Assembly (NCBI GenBank): GCA_001004905.1
Contig: LCRY01000002.1
Span: 269,873-333,872, forward strand
Length of the DNA: 64,000 nt
Source: Parcubacteria group bacterium GW2011_GWA1_56_13
GTDB taxonomy: Bacteria > Patescibacteriota > Minisyncoccia > Phycocordibacterales > Phycocordibacteraceae
Direction of reading: 5' to 3'
This document shows positions 1,492 through 26,866 of the stretch, piece after piece. Position 1 is the stretch's first letter. Each line of letters starts with the position of its first letter. A program made the translations under genes and the position numbers. The notes under the pieces were generated by a model. It was not told where the DNA came from and did not search any database. It saw only the letters and a list, made by a program, of their open reading frames with translations.

Positions 1492-2592
1492 CTAGAGCCC
1501 TTCGGATTTGAGGTCGTCAACAACCTTGCGGGCTTTGCCGGAGAGCTTCTGCGGAAGCGCGACTTCAAGCCGGATGATAAGGTCGCCCCGGCCGCCTTCA
1601 AGCGGTATTCCCTTTCCTCCCACCCGCAGCAGCTCCTCCGCGCGTTTCATCGGCGGTATCTTCACCTCGAGCGCCTTTCCCTCCAGGGTTTCGATGGAGA
1701 CGGTAGTGCCGAGAAGCGCGTCGGTGAGCTTTACCGGCAAGCTCATAACGAGATTCCCCCCGTCACGACGGAATTGCGGATGCGGCTTCACGTGTATCTT
1801 GACGTACAGGTCGCCCGCAATACCGGTCTTGACCGCCTCCCCCTTCCCCTGCATGCGTATCATTTCCCCGTTATCAATGCCGGAAGGAATGCGAATGTGC
1901 ACTTCTTCCTGCTTGCGCCGTGTGCCATGGCCTCTGCATTCGGGACATTTCTCCTTCGGTATCTTCCCGCTGCCCTCGCAGGCGGAACAGACGCGGACGG
2001 TAGTGAATTGCCCGAGAATGGAATTGCGCGTCTCGTGGACGCGGCCACTGCCGTTGCAGGTGGAACACTTCTCAAGCTCGGTACCCGGCTTCGCTCCCGA
2101 GCCGCGGCAAAGGTCGCAGGTGGAAACTTTTGCGATGAGGACGTTCCGGGTCGTGCCGAAGATAGCGTCCTTGAACGCTATTTCGAGGTCAATAGAAATG
2201 TCGCGTCCCCGGGGAGTCTGCTGACGCGCGGCCCTGCCGGAGAATATGTCGCCGAAGATATCGCCGAAATCTCCGCCGAATGCGGGTCCGCCTTCGGTGG
2301 AGAATTCAAAATTACCGTTCCGGAACATGTCATTGAAATCAAATCCGCCGAATGGATTGCCACCCGCAGGTCCTGAACCCCCGGCGAACGCTTGGCCGTA
2401 CGCGTCGTACTCACGACGCTTTTTGTCGTCGCTTAAGACCGAATAGGCCTCGGTAATTTCTTTGAACTTCGCTTCGTCGGTGCCCCCCTTATCGGGATGG
2501 TATTTATGCGCGAGCTTCCGGAAGGCCTTTTTGATATCCTCCTTGGTGGCCTTCCGGTCCACCCCGAGCACGTTGTAATAGTCCTTGGTCAT
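1492..2592 (-). CDS. dnaJ: molecular chaperone DnaJ
   Basis: J-domain with HPD motif (YHPDKG), Gly-rich linker, four CxxCxGxG zinc-finger repeats, C-terminal domains. Confidence 0.97.
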
Positions 2593-4493
2593 GGTTTTTC
2601 TTTAAATTCCGCGTCGGTCGGACCGGAAGATTCGGGGGGAGGATTCTGCGTCCCTCCTGCGTCGGGACCTGCGGCTGCACCTCCGGTCTGCTGCGCTTTC
2701 ATGACCGCTTCGCCTATCTTCATCATTGCCTGCGAAAGGTTGTCGGTCGCGGTTTTGATGGTCGCGGGGTCCTCGCTGTTGCGAGCGGTCTTGAGGGCGT
2801 CTATCTTGTCCTGCACTTCCTTCACTATCTCGGCCCCTACTTTTTCACCGTTGTCTTTTATCGCCTTCTCGGCGGCATACACGGCCTGGTCGGCGACATT
2901 GCGCGCCTCGACAAGCTCCTTGCGCTTCGCGTCGTCGGAGGCATGCGCCTCGGCATCGGCCGCCATCTTCTCGATGTCGGTCTTCGAGAGGCCCGTGGAG
3001 CCCTCGATGCGGATACTCTGCTCTTTGCCGGTCGTCTTTTCCTTCGCCTTCACCGTGAGGATACCGGAGGCGTCCACATCGAACGTCACTTCGATCTGCG
3101 GCATGCCGCGCGGGGACGGCGGGATGCCGTCGAGCATGAATTTGCCGAGCGACTTGTTGTCGGCGCTCATCGCGCGCTCGCCCTGCGTGATATGGATCTC
3201 GACCGACGGCTGGTTGTCGGCGGCGGTAGAAAATACCTGCGAGCGGCTGGTCGGGATGGCCGTGTTGCGCTCAATGAGCTTGGTCGCCACGCCGCCCATC
3301 GTCTCGATCGCGAGCGACAGCGGGATAACATCAACGAGCAGGATGTCTTTTACGTCGCCCTGCAGGATGCCCGCCTGGATGGCCGCGCCCACCGCAACAA
3401 CCTCGTCGGGATTAACGCTCATGTTCGGCTTCTTGCCGAAGAATTTTTCGACTTCCGCCTGGAGCTTCGGCATGCGGGTCTGGCCGCCGACCAGGATAAC
3501 CTCATTGATATCGGCCACCGTAAACGGCGACGCGTCCATCGCGCGCTTGGTGATGCTCATTGCGCGCTCGATGAATTCCGCAGCAAGGTCTTCGAGCTTC
3601 GCGCGTGTCATCTTGATGAGCATGTGCCGCGGGCCGGAGGCGTCCGAGGTGAGGAACGGGATATTTATCTCGGTCTCCATCGCGCTTGAAAGTTCTATCT
3701 TCGCCTTCTCGGCGGCCTCGTCGAGCCGCTGGCGCGCGAGCGCATCGCCACGCACATCGATGCCGCTCTCTTTTTTGAATTCGTCGGCAAGCCAGTTGAT
3801 TATCTTCTGGTCGATATCCTTGCCGCCCAGGTGCGCGTCGCCGTCGGTACTCTTCACCTCAATGACATCGCCGCCTACATCGAGTACCGAAATGTCGAAT
3901 GTTCCGCCGCCGAAGTCGAAGACCGCTATTTTCTCGTCTTTTTTCTTGTTGAAACCGTATGCAAGCGCGGCCGCCGTCGGCTCGTTGATGATGCGCTTCA
4001 CTTCAAGCCCGGCGATCTGCCCCGCGGCCTTGGTCGCGCTGCGCTGGTCGTCATTGAAGTACGCGGGGACGGTAATAACGGCTTCGGTTATCTTTTCGCC
4101 CAGCCTCGCTTCGGCGTCGGCTTTGAACTTGCCGAGTATCATCGCGGATATCTCTTCCGGCCGGTACCACTTATCCGTCATCTTGACCTCAATGCCGCCA
4201 TTGTCCGCTTTGCGCATTTCGAACGGCACGGCCGCCTTGTCTTTCTGCGCTGCAGGTTCGTCAAAGGAGTGGCCGATGAAGCGCTTGATCTGGAATATGG
4301 TGTTGAGCGGGTTCGTGACCGACTGACGCTTGGCAAGGGTGCCGACGATCCTCTCGCCGGTCTTCCCCACCGCCACAATGGACGGGGTGGTACGGGCGCC
4401 TTCGGCGTTCTCGAGCACGCGTGGCTCGCCGCCTTCGACGATAGCCATCGCGGAATTGGTCGTGCCTAGATCTATACCGAGAATTTTTGCCAT
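2589..4493 (-). CDS. dnaK: molecular chaperone DnaK (Hsp70)
   Basis: [22 protein letters not shown]..., full Hsp70 ATPase and substrate-binding domains. 4-nt overlap with dnaJ. Confidence 0.98.
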
Positions 4494-5112: not shown

Positions 5113-5154
5113 TTCCCTACTATGCCCGAAAATGCATGCGGAGTCAAAAAGATA

Positions 5155-5191: not shown

Positions 5192-6109
5192 TCATACATG
5201 GACAAGAGAGTAGCCAATCCCACGTTCGGTTTTTATCGCGTAGGGACAGCCATTCAAGAACTTCCTGAGCCGCGTCACAAGCGCGTCCACCGCCCGCTCC
5301 TCAATGAACACGCTCGGTCCCCATACCGCGTCCAGGATGGCTTGCCGGACATGGAGACGGCCGACGGGATTGGCGAGGAAGCGGAGCAGATTATACGAAC
5401 GCGTGCGGATGACGTCCCGCCGAGGATTCGTGACGCCAATTTCCACCTCAAAATTGTCGTAGACGGTTATTCCCTCGAGGATGAGCAGAGGTCTTGACCC
5501 GGGTTTCGGTTCAGGCGCGATAAGAACTGTTTCTTTGTGCTGTTCTTTCGACCTGTCAAGGACCAGAAACCCCCGGCGTACTGCCTCAATTACCGCACAA
5601 ATTCTGTTCGGCGTAGAGAGTTTCCCGAGAATATGCCCCACGTGATTTCTGACCGTTTCCTTGGAGATCTGGAGGATGGAACCGATTTCCGCATTGGTTT
5701 TCCCCTCCGCTATCCACCTCAATACGTCCTGCTCCCGCGATGAAAGCAAGGATGGCATGTTTCCTCCCTGAAGAATTGTTTGCGTAAAGGGTTTGGGTGC
5801 TGATTTTGCTGCGGAGTTTTCATGATCCCTTTGCTGATCCTTCTGTATAGGACAGATCGCGCTCAATGTGCGCTCCAATTCCGCCATGTGCATCTCAACC
5901 TCAGAGCCACGGAAGATAACAAATCCATGGGAGGTCGCTTCCTCCACGACACGGAAACGCTTCCGGACCGAAAACGCCGCAAGGATATTGTGTACATCCT
6001 GGGCAACTTTATTTCTGGAGATGTCGAGGATCTGACTGATTTCGTCATTTGTTTTCCCCTTCGCCATCAGCTCGAAGACCCTGAGGCGGCGGTGTACATA
6101 AGGTTTCAT
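5192..6109 (-). CDS. unusual transcriptional regulator: two LuxR/GerE-type HTH domains plus a C-terminal OmpR/PhoB-type winged-helix domain; sits in the HrcA position
   Basis: First HTH: RLRVFELMAKGKTNDEISQILDISRNKVAQDVHNIL. Second HTH: LSSREQDVLRWIAEGKTNAEIGSILQISKETVRNHVGHILGKL. C-terminus: LLRFLANPVGRLHVRQAILDAVWGP...RLRKFL...IKTERGIGYSL (trans_reg_C-like). GGAGG lies 5 nt before the MKPYV start. Confidence 0.6.
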   Translation of the reverse strand: MKPYVHRRLRVFELMAKGKTNDEISQILDISRNKVAQDVHNILAAFSVRKRFRVVEEATSHGFVIFRGSEVEMHMAELERTLSAICPIQKDQQRDHENSAAKSAPKPFTQTILQGGNMPSLLSSREQDVLRWIAEGKTNAEIGSILQISKETVRNHVGHILGKLSTPNRICAVIEAVRRGFLVLDRSKEQHKETVLIAPEPKPGSRPLLILEGITVYDNFEVEIGVTNPRRDVIRTRSYNLLRFLANPVGRLHVRQAILDAVWGPSVFIEERAVDALVTRLRKFLNGCPYAIKTERGIGYSLVHV

Positions 6110-6205
6110 TACGCCTCCCTGACGAATGTATCCAAGCGGGATTGCCTGGTCTAAGATGAGGTATAGCATAAAAAATCGCCGTGGTCGGTACTAACCGCTG
6201 CACGG

Positions 6206-6238
6206 AGTAAAAAGAAGACCCCCGCTGAAGCGGGGGTT
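6206..6238 (-). terminator. intrinsic terminator after the Cys-rich small gene
   Basis: Stem ACCCCCGC / GCGGGGGT with a tgaa loop, followed by a T-run on the minus strand. Confidence 0.7.
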
Positions 6239-6260
6239 CCCATTAACGGCCGCGCGGTGA

Positions 6261-6488
6261 CTACCCATCGGCGTCGTCCAGTGCGCACTGGTTGGAGCAG
6301 TAGACGGCGAGGTGTGCCGGAGAAAGTGGCACGTCACAAGCTCCGTTCATGCAGTGCCTGCCCGCCGGGTGATTCTGGGGAACGAGCCATCCTCGGCCGA
6401 GGCATACCTCGCACCCATGTCCTCCGCAGGGGTCGCATTGCACGCTATCCGGCGGATAGTTTTTATCCTTCGGAATGCTCGTATCCAT
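6261..6488 (-). CDS. small Cys-rich protein with two DnaJ-type CxxCxGxG zinc-finger motifs plus CxxxxC and CxxxC pairs
   Basis: MDTSIPKDKNYPPDSVQCDPCGGHGCEVCLGRGW...CMNGAC...CSNQC. AGGAG Shine-Dalgarno 7 nt upstream; own terminator. Confidence 0.55.
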   Translation of the reverse strand: MDTSIPKDKNYPPDSVQCDPCGGHGCEVCLGRGWLVPQNHPAGRHCMNGACDVPLSPAHLAVYCSNQCALDDADG

Positions 6489-6501
6489 CTCGGTTCTCCT
6501 C

Positions 6502-6708
6502 TCAAAAAGAGTTTGCTGGGCGAATGAGCGTCGCATCCGGTTTTCCATTGATCTTGGTGCCGACGAGTGCCGACGGTACCGGCTCCCATTTCCCGGTCGT
6601 GGAGTCGTATACGTCGGTTTTCTTCAGCTCTTCCCCGGCGCGAAGACAGCGTCCAAAAACCGCTTCTTCCTGGTTCCGGGGATGCAAATGCAGAATGTTC
6701 ATTCCGTT
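6502..6708 (-). CDS. small hypothetical protein, paralog A (~68 aa)
   Basis: MNGMNILHLHPRNQEEAVFGRCLRAGEELKKTDVYDSTTGKWEP...IRPA, a paralog of ORF 7555..7746. Strong Shine-Dalgarno AGGGAGAG; conserved promoter. Confidence 0.55.
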   Translation of the reverse strand, partial: NGMNILHLHPRNQEEAVFGRCLRAGEELKKTDVYDSTTGKWEPVPSALVGTKINGKPDATLIRPANSF

Positions 6709-6750
6709 CATGCTCTCCCTTTCTTTCAAGGACTGGAACTGTCCAGGCGA

Positions 6751-6779
6751 ACTCTATTCCTGCATTTACACCAAGTCAA
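6751..6779 (-). promoter_or_regulatory. sigma70-like promoter of paralog A (TTGACT-N17-TAGAGT)
   Basis: Same architecture and spacing as the promoter upstream of paralog B. Confidence 0.45.
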
Positions 6780-6781
6780 AT

Positions 6782-6812
6782 CCCATGGCGGGCACGTAGT
6801 GCCCGCCATGGG
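6782..6812. repeat. 31-nt perfect palindrome (14-bp arms) cccatggcgggcac-gta-gtgcccgccatggg
   Basis: Seen directly, between the LUD gene stop and the paralog A promoter. Could be a terminator hairpin or an operator. Confidence 0.5.
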
Positions 6813-6827
6813 ATGCGGTCCAGGAAA

Positions 6828-7448
6828 TTAAAAGCCGAGCTTTTCGTTGACGAAGATAACGTGGACTCGCCTGTTCTGTTTCTCCTGATGCAGTATCACG
6901 GTCTTGCTGTGCGCCGTGTGAGAGCCGTATTTCTTCAGTATATTCACGTCTTCGAGCGGCAGGATGTACGTATCTATCCGTTCAAAAGCATCTGGTAAAT
7001 CCCGGACTATCTTCTGCGTGCCAACGACAAGTATGATGTTCGGCGAGGTATATACCACGTGCGGCAGCTGACTGCCGGTATTGGACGCGATGACGATTTC
7101 CCCGGCCTCGGTGATGGCGTGCGCACTGCCGAGGTAATAGTCCGAAATGACCGATAATTTGCGCAGTTCCTTTTGCCGTTCCGGGTCCTTTTCGACGAGA
7201 ACGGCCGCGTGGAGATTATTCCAGCCGTGCGTGCCGTTTTTCAAGTACTCGACAAAACCGATTTCCTCGAGAGTGCGCGAGGAGCCGTTCATGACCGACG
7301 CCCCCGCCGGAATGAGACGTGTAATACGCGCAAGCGCGTCGGCACTCGTCGGAGCTACCTCAGGCAGGAATCCCCGCCCGGCGAGCCCTTTCGTTACTTT
7401 TGCGAGGACCTCTATCGGTGCCAATACGTCAAATGTTCGTGTTTTCAT
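6828..7448 (-). CDS. LUD-domain protein (LutC / YkgG-like lactate-utilisation family)
   Basis: Domain-level similarity to DUF162/LUD; 206 aa. Confidence 0.6.
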   Translation of the reverse strand: MKTRTFDVLAPIEVLAKVTKGLAGRGFLPEVAPTSADALARITRLIPAGASVMNGSSRTLEEIGFVEYLKNGTHGWNNLHAAVLVEKDPERQKELRKLSVISDYYLGSAHAITEAGEIVIASNTGSQLPHVVYTSPNIILVVGTQKIVRDLPDAFERIDTYILPLEDVNILKKYGSHTAHSKTVILHQEKQNRRVHVIFVNEKLGF

Positions 7449-7502
7449 ATCCCTTCACTATGCCCTATCTAAAAACCGGGGCACCCTGTGGACAACTTTT
7501 GA

Positions 7503-7536
7503 GGGTAAAAAGAAGCCCCGCTGGAAGCGGGGCTTT
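7503..7536 (-). terminator. intrinsic terminator after paralog B
   Basis: Stem AAGCCCCGC / GCGGGGCTT followed by a T-run on the minus strand. Confidence 0.65.
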
Positions 7537-7554
7537 AGTTTTCCGAACTCTGTT

Positions 7555-7746
7555 CTACGCGGGACGAATGAATATCATCTCCGCGTTTTCCGGCACCGGG
7601 GTACCAACAGCTTTCCCGGATATCGACTGCCATCCGCTTATGGAGTCGTATACGTCGCCTGTCTTTCGTAGCTCTCCTGGCCCAAGGCGACGTCCTAGAA
7701 CGACGTCTTCGTCGAAACGTGGATGATGATACTTTCGTGCATCCAT
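7555..7746 (-). CDS. small hypothetical protein, paralog B (63 aa)
   Basis: MDARKYHHPRFDEDVVLGRRLGPGELRKTGDVYDSISGW...IFIRPA. Shine-Dalgarno AGGGAGAGGGAG. Confidence 0.55.
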   Translation of the reverse strand: MDARKYHHPRFDEDVVLGRRLGPGELRKTGDVYDSISGWQSISGKAVGTPVPENAEMIFIRPA

Positions 7747-7784
7747 TTCTCCCTCTCCCTAAAGTGGGCAATTGACCCGTCCTG

Positions 7785-7813
7785 ACTTTATTCTGACCTC
7801 CCCATCAAGTCAA
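7785..7813 (-). promoter_or_regulatory. sigma70-like promoter of paralog B (TTGACT-N17-TAAAGT)
   Basis: Conserved with the paralog A promoter. Confidence 0.45.
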
Positions 7814-8025
7814 ATACCACTTCTTACGCCGCTTGAAATGCGGTATGGTGAGAAAAGACAGATAAAGGAGTATGTCCGTGGAAAATACGCACATCGTCGA
7901 TGGACGAATGTTTATGGAGCAGGCGCGGGCCGAACGAGTAGTGAGCGCTCATCTTGCCTGCCTCCGTTGTGAGCAGGGGGTTTTGAGCAAGGACTACCCT
8001 TGCTCACGACGTTAGGGCCTGTGGA

Positions 8026-8658
8026 TTATAAGATGCCTCTCTTTTTCAGTTCCCGTTCTCGAATCCGTCTCTCAGCTCGGGTTTCTCCCAGATTATTTCT
8101 ATGAGCTTCAGGAATGAAATCGATTTCTCTCAAAGATGGTTGGCAGTAAGAAAATGTTGTTCGTCCATTGAAATTTGTGACAGCAAAGTCACCTGCCCCA
8201 ATAATATCCATACCAATCAGTACCTGTGTATGATCTTTCTCGTCAGCTCCATCGTCTGGGATTAAATCCGCTTCTGTGACACGGACTTGTCCGAACATAG
8301 ACCGACTCGGTAACCCGATATTTATAAGATACGTATTTGTCGAGGACTTTCCTTTGGCATGACGTACCTCTGCTACTCCCGAAGGTTTCAGTCCCAAATC
8401 TCGTACCACCCTTTGAGTGATTGCCGAATTAGTTGCTCCCGTATCCCAAATGGCCGTATATTCTCGAAGTTGATACCCTCCTCTTTCCACCTCCTCTAGC
8501 GTCGCTGCCTCTCCTATCTTCACTTTGTTTGTAAGCACACGCACACGACCTGAGATTTTTGTAGTGAAAGCAAGATGCTGTACCATAACCCGAACTGTTA
8601 ACGGAACAAGGCTCTTGAATGAAATGTTTGGGTGTAGGATTCTTCGCCAGGACGACAC
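8026..8658 (-). CDS. retropepsin-like (clan AA) aspartic protease; start uncertain
   Basis: IWDTGATNSAIT (DTGA active-site motif) and LIGMDIIGAGDF. Lies in a low-GC segment. Confidence 0.6.
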   Translation of the reverse strand: MSSWRRILHPNISFKSLVPLTVRVMVQHLAFTTKISGRVRVLTNKVKIGEAATLEEVERGGYQLREYTAIWDTGATNSAITQRVVRDLGLKPSGVAEVRHAKGKSSTNTYLINIGLPSRSMFGQVRVTEADLIPDDGADEKDHTQVLIGMDIIGAGDFAVTNFNGRTTFSYCQPSLREIDFIPEAHRNNLGETRAERRIRERELKKRGIL

Positions 8659-8846
8659 TCCTGAATAAGGAAAGTACCCAGATCAAATCTCTCCTTGGCT
8701 TCGGTATAAGCTTGGATTTCAGAATCATAATCACCCTTCACTTCCTCGTCCTTGATGACGAGAAATTTCCCTTCATATTTAGAAACCAACTCAGCTTGAT
8801 GTCTCTTAAAATATTCAAGTTCTTTCTGAAGATTTGGTACGTTCAT
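8598..8846 (-). CDS. small hypothetical protein of the kind often paired with retropepsin-like proteases (DUF5678-like; family name from memory)
   Basis: MNVPNLQKELEYFKRHQAELVSKYEGKFLVIKDEEVKGDYDSEIQAYTEAKERFDLGTFLIQ. Confidence 0.4.
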   Translation of the reverse strand: MNVPNLQKELEYFKRHQAELVSKYEGKFLVIKDEEVKGDYDSEIQAYTEAKERFDLGTFLIQECRPGEESYTQTFHSRALFR

Positions 8847-8872
8847 TTTTAGAGAATAGCACAATAGTTGTT

Positions 8873-8901
8873 AACGCTTCGACCACTGCGGGGCGTTGTG
8901 G
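8873..8901. repeat. imperfect direct repeat, copy A: duplicate of the rpsI 3' end; would encode ...APQWSKR*
   Basis: 23/29 identical to 9374..9402, with the same reading frame and peptide as the S9 C-terminus. Confidence 0.7.
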
Positions 8902-8906
8902 ACGAC

Positions 8907-9128
8907 TTACGCCGCAATTGAAAGTCCAGAGGAGATCTTTACTGGAATCCCATTACGCATGTTCTTCTGAAGTTGATTGCCTGCATCGAGAAGTTCAATA
9001 CCCAAAATATTTCCCTTCTTGTCGAGATCAACGATAAGTTGCTCTTTCATTTCCACGGTTCTAGCCACCTTGCCTTTGCGCAAAGTCATATAAATAGCAT
9101 CCGCCACCTTGTCGTAGTTGATGTTCAT
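8907..9128 (-). CDS. DUF2283 family small protein (antitoxin-like partner of DUF4258)
   Basis: MNINYDKVADAIYMTLRKGKVARTVEM...ILGIELLDAG. Confidence 0.65.
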   Translation of the reverse strand: MNINYDKVADAIYMTLRKGKVARTVEMKEQLIVDLDKKGNILGIELLDAGNQLQKNMRNGIPVKISSGLSIAA

Positions 9129-9364
9129 AGATAGTAAGCCGTGCTTATAATGTATTCATTACTTTTGTCTCGAAAACCGTCCTTCCAGTATACCACAACT
9201 ATTGTTTTTGAGCCGATTTTCTTACGAACTCTAGTTCTTCCTTCGAATACAGCTTCTTTTAAATCAGGGTCACGAATTGCCTTTTTTACATGTTCAATCT
9301 GGATATTTCGTTCCTGCATTCGAACTTGAAAGTGATTTGTAAGACGTAATTTCACTTTCGACAT
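9125..9364 (-). CDS. DUF4258 family protein (toxin-like); start at the MSKVKLRL Met
   Basis: MSKVKLRLTNHFQVRMQERNIQIEHVKKAI...; overlaps the DUF2283 gene by 4 nt. Confidence 0.6.
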   Translation of the reverse strand: MSKVKLRLTNHFQVRMQERNIQIEHVKKAIRDPDLKEAVFEGRTRVRKKIGSKTIVVVYWKDGFRDKSNEYIISTAYYL

Positions 9365-9371
9365 ACGAATT

Positions 9372-9767
9372 CTAACGTTTAGACCACTGTGGGGCCTTGC
9401 GAGCCTTTTTGAGACCGGGTTTCTTGCGCTCTTTGGCACGCGGGTCTCGCTTGAGGAAGTGCGCCGCCTTGAGCACTTTGCGGGTCTTCGGCTCCGCCTT
9501 TATTATGGCGCGGCTGATGGCGTGGCGCAGTGCGTCTGCCTGCGCGGCGACGCCGCCGCCCTCCACGTGCGCGACCACCGCGTAGTGTTGTGCGCTCTCC
9601 GCTGTGGCGAGCGCCTCTTCGGCGACCTTGGCTCGCTCGTCCGTCTTAAAATATTCTTTCGGGGTCTTGCCGTTCACCGTCACCGTACCTTTGTCCGCGG
9701 GCGTCATGCGAACCGTCGCGATGGCGGTCTTCCTGCGTCCGACTGCGGTAACAAATTGAGTTGCCAT
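9372..9767 (-). CDS. rpsI: 30S ribosomal protein S9
   Basis: Clear uS9 sequence ending ...KAPQWSKR. Confidence 0.97.
   Translation of the reverse strand: MATQFVTAVGRRKTAIATVRMTPADKGTVTVNGKTPKEYFKTDERAKVAEEALATAESAQHYAVVAHVEGGGVAAQADALRHAISRAIIKAEPKTRKVLKAAHFLKRDPRAKERKKPGLKKARKAPQWSKR
9374..9402. repeat. direct repeat, copy B (the functional 3' end of rpsI)
   Basis: See copy A at 8873..8901. Confidence 0.7.
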
Positions 9768-10600: not shown

Positions 10601-11439
10601 TTATTCGCTCTTGAGAGTGAGGCCATGGCCCGCGAGCGCGACCGAGATCTCCTCGATGGCCTTGTCGCCGATGCCGTCGAGTTCCTTGAGTGCGCTCGCC
10701 GACTTCCTCGCAAGGCCGGCTGCGCTCTTGATACCCGCGTCCTCGAGCGCGGAAGTGATGCGCGCCGAGAGATTGAGGTCGGCTATCTTTATCTTCGCGC
10801 CGGAGGGAGGCGCCGTCTCGGCGGCCGAGGTGCCTTCAAGTGAAACGGTCGGGACGCTCTCCTGGAAGCCGATGATGGCCTGCAGTTGATGGATCATGGT
10901 CTCGATGGACTTCTCAAGCGCCTCGCGCGGAGCAACGGTGCCGTTGGTCTCGATGAGGATGCGCAGACGGTTGAAGTCGGTGCGGTCGCCGACGCGCATG
11001 TTCTCCACTTCGTAATTCACGCGGCGGATGGGAGTGAACGTCGCATCAAGCGCGATGGTGCCGATGTCTACCTTGTCCTTGGTCAGCACTTCCCGCGATA
11101 CGTAGCCAAGCCCGCGCTCAATGGTCGCTTCAAGCTCGAGAGATGCCTTTCCTGAAAGATCGGCGATGTGCTGGTCGGGATTCCGTATCTCGACCTGGCT
11201 CGGAAGTTTGAAATCCTTCGCCGTCACCGCGCCCGTGCCCTTTGCCATAAGCGAAATGACCTGCGGCTCGTCGCCATGGAGCACGAAATGTACGCGCTTG
11301 AGGTTCAAAAGGATTTCCATAACCGTCTCGCGAGCGTATGGCCGTAGCCCGGATAGAGCGAATCTATTTCGTAGACGCCTTGCATGCCTTCTTCAGAAAC
11401 GATACGGGGCTTACTCGGAAGTGTGATGTGGTATTCCAT
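10601..11439 (-). pseudogene. rpoA: RNA polymerase alpha subunit, disrupted. The N-terminal 44 codons (11308..11439) are in one frame and the rest (10601..11320) in another, and about 38 N-terminal-domain codons between the ALRR motif and the ILLNLK motif are missing
   Basis: N-terminal piece: MEYHITLPSKPRIVSEEGMQGVYEIDSLYPGYGHTLARRLWKSF*. Second piece starts MEILLNLKRV... and continues through the alpha C-terminal domain. Compared with E. coli RpoA from memory. Confidence 0.7.
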
Positions 11440-25499: not shown

Positions 25500-26866
25500 A
25501 CAGGCAGATCAGGAGGGGCTTCGGCCGTCGGCGACTGAATGCGACGGAGTCCGGGCGTCGCAACGGTGCTCGAAGGAACGTGAAAAACAGTGGCGATCTC
25601 CTCCGTGCTCATGACCATTGCATTGTCCATGGCGAACGGTTCGTGGAAATACTGCCGGCGACGGAATGCCTGCACGATCTGCCTGCGGAAAGCATCCTTG
25701 CGACGCTCATTTCCGAACTCCCAGGGATAATCGCTGAACTCCATGCCGAAGTGGGTCGCTTTGACGCCGTTCCAGCCCTCCGAGTTGAACGCTTTGAAGA
25801 GGCTGATCATGCCGGTGATGAAGGTAGGATTGAAATGCTTCGGTTCAGCGATATAGACACCGCGACCACCGACGTCAAACGCGAGTTTTGACACATTGCG
25901 CTCAATGGCGGCGATGGTCTCCGACTGTCCTTTCGTCGGGTTCGGAAAGCCTTCGGTTTCGATCATTTTTCCGCTCGCCGAATCGAAGTATTTGAATTTC
26001 CTCGTCGTCTCGCGGCGTATCTTGTCCACTTCTTCGAGCGCTTGGTCGCGCCAGGTAAACCGCTTACCTTTCTCGTTTTTCTTATTGTATTTCTCGCCCG
26101 CGTGCACGCGGATGATGAATTGCAACCAGAAATACTGATGCTTTCCTATCGAACCCATGAATTCGACGATGCTTGCGAAAGGGTCTACCTGCTCGGGCTC
26201 CTTCTGCGTCTTGTCGAGGCCGTACTCGACATATGTCTTGATCGGGTACGCGTCGATCGGCTGTGTGTGTTTATAATCGCAGCCCCATACGCCCCACTCT
26301 CCGGGTTCCGCGCTGATGGTGCGCGTATAATCCATCGCCTCGACCATTTGCACGCCGGGATACTGGGAATAAAACGCGTTCTCGACGAGCTTGCGGAAAT
26401 CCGCGCGCGTCCACACGAAAAAATGTATCTCTCCCTCGAACGAAGCGATCTCCAACGACCAATACGGACGTACCTGGCCCTGCCAATATATCTGGAACCA
26501 GTTGCTCTCGCCCTTCGTATAGTGGATGCTGGATAATACCGTTTCCATGGCAAGCGGCGTTTTTACCAAATTTCGCGGCAGCTTGATCTCGAGCAGGACA
26601 TATGGTCGGGTCGCGATGAATTCGGAGCGTATGTACACGAGCCACAGCGTGAATGCGCCGCCCACGAGAAGGAACGGCAGCCACAAGGGCGCAAGGAAAA
26701 GCGCGAGCGAAAGGGACGCGGCGACCTGGGCCGGGAAAAATACGTAGGCGAGGAAGAGGAGAGTTATTCCCGCAATGAGGGGTGGCCACCGGAACGGGCG
26801 GATGCCCACGGTGTCGCGCGCATCGTTGACCAGCTTCGCAAGCTTGTCGTAGAAAGGAAGTAACAT
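25496..26866 (-). CDS. hypothetical membrane protein (2 N-terminal TM helices plus a large domain)
   Basis: ORF only. A TATACT -10 box lies 8 nt upstream of the ATG (possibly leaderless). Confidence 0.45.
   Translation of the reverse strand: MLLPFYDKLAKLVNDARDTVGIRPFRWPPLIAGITLLFLAYVFFPAQVAASLSLALFLAPLWLPFLLVGGAFTLWLVYIRSEFIATRPYVLLEIKLPRNLVKTPLAMETVLSSIHYTKGESNWFQIYWQGQVRPYWSLEIASFEGEIHFFVWTRADFRKLVENAFYSQYPGVQMVEAMDYTRTISAEPGEWGVWGCDYKHTQPIDAYPIKTYVEYGLDKTQKEPEQVDPFASIVEFMGSIGKHQYFWLQFIIRVHAGEKYNKKNEKGKRFTWRDQALEEVDKIRRETTRKFKYFDSASGKMIETEGFPNPTKGQSETIAAIERNVSKLAFDVGGRGVYIAEPKHFNPTFITGMISLFKAFNSEGWNGVKATHFGMEFSDYPWEFGNERRKDAFRRQIVQAFRRRQYFHEPFAMDNAMVMSTEEIATVFHVPSSTVATPGLRRIQSPTAEAPPDLPV

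Follow-up and report, generated by a model that had tools for sequence, protein, structure and literature searches.

A duplicated cassette for a small all-β protein, paired with a cysteine-rich protein, upstream of grpE-dnaK-dnaJ in a Parcubacteria genome

The tiny genome of Parcubacteria group bacterium GW2011_GWA1_56_13 retains two strongly signalled copies of a protein of about 65 residues that has no database description. Both copies, hereafter paralogs A and B, are encoded upstream of the chaperone genes grpE, dnaK and dnaJ in the 64-kb stretch of contig LCRY01000002.1 analysed here (the window), and all genes of the cluster lie on its minus strand. A and B are real, conserved and duplicated cassettes; A forms an operon with a gene for a cysteine (Cys)-rich protein, and a genuine stand-alone LUD-domain gene lies between the two copies. 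The proteins belong to an unannotated family of near-neutral, all-β proteins of ~65 residues with no detectable structural match, and pairing or fusion with Cys-rich modules is the most repeatable association of their domain. From these features we tentatively infer that the domain binds proteins and works alongside a zinc-binding partner, with proteostasis as a possible setting. An Hsp70-accessory role in this clade appears plausible but unproven.

Two copies of one cassette

The cluster consists of three independent transcription units upstream of a regulator gene and grpE-dnaK-dnaJ. The first comprises a promoter, B and a terminator; the second is the LUD gene; the third runs from a promoter through A and the Cys-rich gene to a terminator. 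Their features are as follows, with lengths in amino acids (aa), nucleotides (nt) or base pairs (bp) and hairpin stabilities as free energy (ΔG):

7785..7813, minus strand: promoter of B, TTGACTTG, 15 nt, TAAAGT (TTGACT-17-TAAAGT)
7753..7760, minus strand: ribosome-binding site AGGGAGAG of B, 6 nt before the ATG
7555-7746, minus strand: paralog B, 63 aa
7513..7535, minus strand: intrinsic terminator of B, AAGCCCCGCTTCCAGCGGGGCTT then CTTTTT; ΔG -22.2 kcal/mol, z -4.0
6828-7448, minus strand: LUD gene, 206 aa
6780..6814, minus strand: 16-bp perfect hairpin after the LUD gene; ΔG -35.6 kcal/mol, z -6.5
6751..6779, minus strand: promoter of the A and Cys-rich operon, TTGACTTG, 15 nt, TAGAGT
6713..6720, minus strand: ribosome-binding site AGGGAGAG of A, 1 nt before ATG 6711 and 10 nt before ATG 6702
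6502-6711, minus strand: paralog A, 69 aa (66 aa from ATG 6702)
6261-6488, minus strand: Cys-rich gene, 75 aa
6218..6237, minus strand: intrinsic terminator of the A and Cys-rich operon, ACCCCCGCTTCAGCGGGGGT then CTTCTTTTT; ΔG -19.8 kcal/mol, z -3.4

The initial annotation had described A and B as paralogs with a shared core, promoters of the same architecture and identical Shine-Dalgarno sequences, and all three claims were borne out. Both open reading frames (ORFs) are present and their products are homologous, with 25/57 identical residues (44%; BLASTP E 3e-14) and the core as described. The promoters lie at 7813-7785 and 6779-6751, and their pattern, TTGACTTG-15 nt-TAnAGT, occurs twice in 64 kb against 0.01 occurrences expected; TTGACTTG by itself, found 3 times in the window with 1.25 expected, is not significant. 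Identity between the two promoter regions reaches 71% across 35 nt, and the same value was obtained across 24 nt for the regions spanning the ribosome-binding sites and starts. AGGGAGAG precedes both starts. Because its other five copies in the window are poorly placed, none at normal spacing before a long ORF with the possible exception of one 12 nt before a 306-aa GTG ORF at 26436, AGGGAGAG does not behave as a generic ribosome-binding site. Its spacing to the ATG is unequal, being 6 nt for B and 1 or 10 nt for A. The start of A had previously been placed at 6708 and had to be moved, either to ATG 6711, which public gene calls use and which gives an MNG N-terminus common to a homologue, or to ATG 6702.

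The two intrinsic terminators are near-identical and homologous, and the only two places in the window with their core, CCCCGCTTC(C)AGCGGGG, are behind B and behind the Cys-rich gene (6220-6235), against 0 expected. Each paralog had been credited with a terminator of its own; this holds for B but not for A, whose sole terminator (6237-6218) lies past the Cys-rich gene. Since the stop codon of A is separated from the Cys-rich ATG by a gap of just 13 nt, and no terminator precedes 6237, A and the Cys-rich gene constitute one operon, in which the Cys-rich gene carries a GAGGAG ribosome-binding site. As promoter, ribosome-binding site and terminator are all similar, in addition to the ORFs themselves, A and B stem from the duplication of a whole cassette consisting of promoter, 5′ untranslated region (UTR) with AGGGAGAG, ORF and terminator.

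A related genome confirms the operon. In L008 (L-numbers denote the contigs or loci compared, P-numbers family representatives), TTTGACTGCGCGCGAATGCGGGAATAGAGTTCGCCCGGGCAGTTCCA, which corresponds to the promoter and 5′ UTR of the window's A, stands directly before the Cys-rich gene and drives it, and the A ORF is precisely absent. A was more likely deleted precisely in L008, its promoter staying behind in front of the Cys-rich gene. The converse, a lineage-specific insertion of A that L008 lacks, was considered and rejected: A is canonical and shows 57% identity with the members that lie near grpE in L010 and L012.

Parcubacteria group bacterium GW2011_GWB1_57_6 has a protein identical to the Cys-rich protein, and aquifer metagenome contigs carry B in the same gene order as the window. 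Two strain variants, otherwise 99.9-100% identical to the window region, differ near the B promoter: L005 is without 129 nt (7767-7895), which include the entire promoter, and in L004 29 nt (7814-7842) just upstream of the -35 hexamer are replaced. The hairpin at 6780-6814 abuts the -35 element of the A promoter, has a weak T tail (ATTTGACTT) and is absent at the same place in L008. A search of Rfam returned no family at threshold, only sub-threshold terminator look-alikes.

The LUD gene

A LUD gene between A and B had been predicted, and the assignment proved correct: residues 16-200 of the protein cover profile positions 2-189 of 189 in PF02589 (E 1.9e-27; 96.6 bits against a cutoff of 22.6). 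As a full-length LUD domain it resembles LutB, LutC and YkgG (PF02589; PMC3924224). In contrast to the LutABC arrangement, it stands alone between A and B rather than beside lutA or lutB, as judged from its immediate neighbours, and its score of just 23 bits falls short of the cutoff of 800 set for the LdhH equivalog model. The L008 orthologue is 72% identical and is likewise placed after a B homologue.

An unannotated family of small all-β proteins

A profile built from A and B was run with HMMER against 1.84 billion cluster representatives and retrieved 249 at E ≤ 1e-3, 27 of them at ≤ 1e-10. Near-full-length domains are present in 133/149 of the best representatives (B itself not counted), most of which are 60-90 aa long. 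Of these 133, 127 have a single domain and six have two. P0151 carries 4-5 repeats of ~50 aa, and extensions of at least 20 aa occur in 20 members. G18 and W39 are invariant, followed in conservation by R61 (99%), D31 (98%), H8 (94%) and G48 (91%), within the consensus HxHP-x8-G-x2-L-x2-GE-x5-DVYDSxxGxW...VRP; 65% of members have the first His of HxH. The median isoelectric point (pI) is 6.2 and the median charge -1.2. The few members with a named source are all from Parcubacteria/Paceibacterota, most members being nameless.

A and B both carry G18, W39, D31, R61 and H8. Their scores against the family hidden Markov model (A3 HMM; E 6e-29 for A, 5e-21 for B) are high by construction, since both are in its alignment, and independent members at the loci examined score E 1e-19 to 1e-27. 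The same model found A and B to be the sole members in the 64-kb window. A represents the canonical subtype (DVYDSTTGKWEPVP). B belongs to a subtype with Y-x5-W and groups with the L008 copy, which is 46% identical and also LUD-paired.

Searches of Pfam, NCBIfam, PHROG and PADLOC gave no model that covers the family. Phage records gave no match, and plasmids a single one at chance level. The initial annotation had taken absence of conservation in related genomes as the sign of spurious ORFs, and the idea that A and B are such ORFs, resembling each other by chance, could draw on word-indexed homologue searches, in which A and B each returned only the query itself, and on public annotation that skipped the Cys-rich gene on some contigs. 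The 249 homologous representatives, orthologues elsewhere with conserved promoters and ribosome-binding sites, and a confident model from a 106-sequence alignment refute this idea, and we regard its probability as negligible.

AlphaFold2 given A and B alone as alignment was uninformative (predicted local distance difference test score, pLDDT, 57). With the 106-sequence alignment, it predicted five β strands at a pLDDT of 95.2 and a predicted template modelling score (pTM) of 0.78 as a monomer. Foldseek searches with this model returned no significant match from the PDB (lowest E 0.75; TM-score normalised to the query ≤ 0.34) or from BFVD. Protein binding is favoured over nucleic-acid binding because of the median pI and charge and of a Kelch-like motif described below. 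A cold-shock-like or other nucleic-acid-binding role was rejected on the near-neutral to acidic pI and the lack of a match to the cold-shock domain.

The Cys-rich protein and other Cys-rich partners

The product of the gene behind A had been described as a 75-aa protein with two CxxCxGxG repeats and two more Cys pairs, and that is what 6261-6488 encodes. The repeats abut (C18-D-P-C-G-G-H-G25 and C26-E-V-C-L-G-R-G33) and four more Cys follow, so that an N-terminal C-x2-C-x4-C-x2-C knuckle is joined to a C-terminal C-x4-C-x12-C-x3-C site. Twenty-eight homologues, 54-81% identical, have eight invariant or near-invariant Cys; C18, C21, C26, G22, G23, G25 and G33 are invariant among them, and C29 is conserved in at least 90%.

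The earlier label of a DnaJ-zinc-finger-like protein stands for the motif, which occurs twice (CDPCGGHG, CEVCLGRG), but not for membership. Neither the protein nor any of the 28 homologues matched the DnaJ Cys-rich domain (PF00684) at E ≤ 1, and the protein gave no match at E ≤ 1 to anti-TRAP (PF15777). Whereas DnaJ has four repeats forming two interleaved zinc centres, the window protein has one knuckle made from two abutting repeats, together with the second, unrelated C-x4-C-x12-C-x3-C site. Compared with the full DnaJ of its own genome, it shows motif-level similarity only (pairwise E 0.03-0.05). In sequence searches, the profile of the Cys-rich family scored best against the zinc knuckle of the bacterial phenylalanyl-tRNA synthetase α subunit, PheS (E 0.002; PDB 4p71 and 2rhq; profile segment vQCdeCGGhGCevCeekGWl), but this is a 21-residue local motif within a 300-aa enzyme that has no other similarity, and it implies no shared function. 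Matches of the C-terminal half are sub-threshold and of treble-clef type only (DUF2116, IBR, zf-MYND).

In Bacillus subtilis, TRAP is an RNA-binding 11-mer and anti-TRAP a DnaJ-like zinc protein that binds it. The combination of an all-β protein of ~75 aa with a small CxxCxGxG zinc protein recalls this pair, as an analogy of architecture only: the A/B family is near-neutral to acidic and has no sequence match to TRAP or anti-TRAP. Functional precedents come from two other zinc proteins. Ruc (Mycobacterium tuberculosis Rv0991c) is a redox-regulated zinc-ribbon chaperone that promotes Hsp70-dependent refolding, and its gene neighbourhoods contain dnaK, dnaJ and grpE in many phyla (PMC7448276). 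Like Ruc, the window protein is a small Cys/zinc protein beside an Hsp70 locus. No homology to Ruc was detected, no direct sequence comparison having been made, and by the published description the two differ: Ruc has one four-Cys zinc ribbon at its N-terminus, a disordered, hydrophilic tail and no small all-β partner, whereas the window protein has eight Cys in two compact sites within residues 18-68 of 75 and no tail. ZnJ2, a DnaJ-like zinc-finger protein lacking a J domain, is a holdase (PMC5818400); in common with ZnJ2 and BSD2, the window protein is small and without a J domain, and it is encoded beside grpE-dnaK-dnaJ.

Cys-rich partners recur elsewhere in the A/B family. At L030-L032, an unrelated 66-aa protein with nine Cys is encoded 19 nt after the family member. 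P0094 is a fusion whose member ends in CRSCGGSG...CGACNGSG, again two CxxCxGxG motifs, and P0058, P0036, P0041, P0074, P0033 and P0048 are extended members with other Cys motifs. At least three Cys are found in the extension of 6 of the 20 extended members. No Pfam domain was detected in the fusion partners of ten extended members.

These partners, together with the conserved His and Asp of the β domain, also permit a reading in which the two proteins handle metal or redox chemistry, as a metallochaperone or thiol-redox pair, independently of the chaperone operon. The near-invariant H8 and D31, the frequent HxHP motif and the recurrent Cys-rich partners and fusions would fit it, as would the sub-threshold likeness of the Cys-rich C-terminal half to treble-clef zinc sites and the identity of the top fold matches (cupins and 2-oxoglutarate oxygenases). 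These fold matches are not significant, however (E > 0.7), the family has a single near-invariant His, the first His of HxH being less widely kept, and no metal-transport or redox genes lie nearby in the loci read. We consider metal or redox handling unlikely, and one of the less likely readings of the locus.

A resemblance to single Kelch blades

The only resemblance of the family to outside sequences is to the Kelch blade, which we treat as a lead, not a classification. The Pfam model Kelch_1 (PF01344) matches A at 16.7 bits (E 0.005), below its cutoff of 20.1, and does not match B; only 8/106 family members match it even weakly (E ≤ 0.1). The best 13 PDB sequence matches are all Kelch-type proteins (E 0.008-0.4). 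The A and B profile matches Kelch propellers at whole-library E-values of 2e-10 to 1e-5, and 5/7 of the long multi-stretch matches that were checked are bona fide Kelch propellers. Alignment with hhalign to blades cut from those matches gave 92.9% probability over 30 columns, a circular result in that the blades had been picked by the family profile.

Where Kelch blades have a hydrophobic run, GG and then a Tyr and a Trp at characteristic spacing, the family has V16/F17, a single G18 (100%), Y33 (85%) and W39 (100%); the G-x14-Y-x6-W spacing of A equals the Kelch_1 consensus, B having Y-x5-W. The module of ~50 aa is blade-sized, and like a blade it presents a hydrophobic strand, a G, ~13 residues and then (D)VYD-x4-G-x-W-x2-P. 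In contrast to the 5-7 tandem blades of a Kelch propeller, each 63-69-aa protein has one copy, as do most members; the family further differs by an extra N-terminal HxHP strand, a C-terminal VRP strand and a single G in place of GG, and its predicted fold did not match propellers in Foldseek.

A literal interpretation of this resemblance would make A and B free-standing Kelch-like blades that oligomerise into a ring or propeller, which the zinc-finger protein would bind and regulate in the way anti-TRAP does TRAP. The profile and PDB sequence matches, the hhalign result (with its circularity) and the hallmark spacing point in this direction, as do the existence of two-copy chains and of P0151 with its 4-5 repeats, and β-propellers have been proposed to be amplified from single blades (PMC9218822, PMC6805158). 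Against it, Kelch_1 remains below threshold with few members matching even weakly, no propeller appears among the 50 PDB matches shown by Foldseek, the five-stranded model is confident as a monomer, and there is no Pfam match to TrpBP or Anti-TRAP. We judge such oligomeric single-blade rings improbable and, like metal or redox handling, among the less likely readings. In a more elaborate form, A and B would be natural single Kelch-like blades with a closing strand that form homo- or hetero-oligomeric rings, on which the zinc-knuckle protein would dock in a TRAP/anti-TRAP-like or client-holding manner; this is more doubtful still.

The rpsI-grpE interval in related genomes

A and B lie between rpsI and grpE-dnaK-dnaJ, together with the following features:

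9372-9767, minus strand: rpsI, with toxin-antitoxin-like and protease genes between B and rpsI
5192-6169, minus strand: 325-aa protein with two LuxR-type helix-turn-helix domains (GerE/LuxR) and an OmpR-type winged helix (Trans_reg_C)
5119..5147, minus strand: third promoter site, TTGACT-17-CATAGT, ending 6 nt before the grpE ATG
5112, minus strand: ATG of grpE
2589-4493, minus strand: dnaK
1492-2592, minus strand: dnaJ

Neighbourhoods were read at eleven places, in nine cellular genomes and on two viral contigs. Six distinct Parcubacteria genomes (the window, L008, L010, L012, L014-16 and L019) have a family member between rpsI and grpE-dnaK. The small proteins of these genomes are 36-57% identical, GrpE 62-76% and DnaK 87-92%. 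In L010 the member directly precedes grpE, and in L014-16 it lies 68 bp before it. The L012 member is 109 aa long, has Cys in its tail and is separated from grpE by a 169-aa gene; in L019 a 168-aa gene stands between member and grpE. The L008 order is B homologue, LUD gene, Cys-rich gene (its product 81% identical to the window's), a 236-aa unknown protein and grpE. The A/B family is the sole family common to all six intervals, the other genes varying, so that the accessory look ascribed to the cluster is justified: the interval is indeed variable between genomes.

The promoters are conserved as well. The B orthologue of L008 has its promoter conserved as TTGACTTGATGCGGAGGTCGGAATAAAGT, with the ribosome-binding site AGGGAGAGGGAGAGATG, and the L012 member has the promoter TTGACTTG...GGAATAGAGT; L008, L012 and L014 all have the pattern aTTTGACTT(G/C)-N15-TAnAGT ahead of their members. 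When the motif is loosened to TTGACT-17-nAnAGT, the window contains 3 sites against 0.09 expected, the third being the one before grpE. The remaining promoter-like sites in the window finish in -AT or -TT, not -GT, but they are few. A promoter type shared by grpE and the cassettes fits a common sigma factor; co-regulation is not implied. Before grpE, TTTTC(G/A)GGCATAGT followed by the ATG 6 nt later is conserved in the window, L008, L012, L014 and L019. As this promoter element ends only 6 nt before the start codon, the sequence suggests that the grpE-dnaK mRNA is leaderless or has a very short leader.

Several other features of these intervals are of separate interest. A terminator at 5181-5154 follows the gene for the 325-aa regulator, and public gene calls (GrpE 216 aa) extend GrpE upstream across it. 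The regulator consists of three DNA-binding domains without a receiver or sensor domain, and its two LuxR halves are duplicates of each other, with a 53-nt stretch repeated at 79% identity and a distance of 354 nt. Its slot directly upstream of grpE is taken in L008 (2897-3607) and L019 (1837-2343) by a helical protein, 44% identical between the two and without a Pfam family on record, which is a candidate alternative regulator of the operon. In L019, dnaK and dnaJ are also separated by an inserted gene (5458-6414) whose 318-aa product has 11 Cys, some of them in CTTCDGEG and CLNCNKTG motifs. Beside B, an accessory island (8026-9439) holds a toxin-antitoxin-like DUF4258/DUF2283 pair, a DUF5678-like 88-aa gene and a retropepsin-like aspartyl protease. 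Beyond rpsI, rpoA is split at 10604-11439, with residues 1-42 and 72-312 (L012 RpoA numbering) in different frames and ~29 codons absent; either the assembly is wrong here or an essential gene has become a pseudogene.

A possible role with Hsp70

Our working proposal is that the A/B domain is a small protein-binding module that would act with a Cys-rich, zinc-binding partner. In the window this partner would be the co-transcribed 75-aa protein, whose knuckle carries the client-binding CxxCxGxG motif of DnaJ. In this clade the pair may serve as a constitutive, strongly expressed Hsp70 accessory, for example a holdase or an adaptor that passes clients to DnaK/DnaJ, and B with the LUD protein may be a diverged copy with a different partner. 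The link to Hsp70 is drawn because a member is constant between rpsI and grpE-dnaK and the promoter type of grpE is shared, and a chaperone role for the zinc protein because Ruc (PMC7448276) and ZnJ2 (PMC5818400) provide precedents.

A number of observations weigh against this proposal. Each cassette has a promoter and a terminator to itself and shares no transcript with grpE. Even with 3 mismatches allowed, the entire window yielded no CIRCE inverted repeat (TTAGCACTC-N9-GAGTGCTAA), and the 5′ UTRs show no significant structure (z +0.6 and -1.3) and no sign of an RNA thermometer. Outside the clade, the members of L017 and L018 have membrane-protein neighbours, and that of L030-32 comes after map, where the ribosomal spc operon ends, none with a chaperone link. 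Two members lie on large IMG/VR contigs (107 kb and 144 kb; L028 3983-4207 and L029 ~3908-4153), one directly downstream of an Fpg/Nei-like glycosylase gene and the other near genes for a radical-SAM RlmN/Cfr-like protein and a release-factor-like protein; the two neighbourhoods, inspected for ~4 kb on each side, have no chaperone link. The Cys-rich family adjoins an A/B-family member only in the window and L008 among the loci examined, and of its four longest homologue loci that were inspected, the two outside this lineage are not near chaperones. Finally, the position near grpE may be inherited synteny, because the six genomes represent one related clade. The suggestion in the initial annotation of a stress-related module is weakly supported: it has the position before grpE-dnaK in six genomes and the grpE promoter type on its side, and against it the separate transcription units in related genomes, the neighbourhoods outside the clade and the lack of a CIRCE, thermometer or Rfam element.

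The same observations would suit unlinked accessory genes. On this account the rpsI-grpE interval is a tolerated insertion site that gathers unrelated small genes, the LUD gene and the small cassettes among them, its synteny is inherited, and the function of the family is unrelated to chaperones and possibly related to phage. Interval content differs in every genome, the DUF4258/DUF2283 and DUF5678/aspartyl-protease pairs adjoin B, and the cassettes are self-contained; members occur away from grpE (L017, L018, L030) and on viral contigs, A was cleanly lost in L008, and one strain variant has lost the B promoter. However, a member is always present in an interval that otherwise varies among six genomes whose GrpE proteins have diverged to 62-76% identity, the promoter sequence is conserved across these genomes, and matches to PHROG, PADLOC, phage records or plasmids are lacking. 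We regard unlinked accessory genes as a real possibility, short of probable, and inherited synteny in a variable island as about equally likely as a chaperone role.

Beyond this clade, the L030-L032 locus is of interest for its position: the member and the nine-Cys protein (6001-6430) fill the slot directly after map. At the end of the spc operon, map is usually followed by infA and rpmJ.

Significance

The family described here spans ~250 clusters and combines a confident predicted fold that has no detectable structural relative with repeated pairing to zinc modules and, in one clade, an Hsp70-adjacent position. No Pfam entry was found for it, and it merits definition. If the Kelch resemblance reflects homology, the family bears on how β-propellers arise from single blades, and if the single-blade reading were true, A and B would be living examples of the single-blade ancestor state of propellers. 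If the functional link to Hsp70 is real, the pair would represent a new accessory component of bacterial proteostasis in organisms that are not culturable alone.

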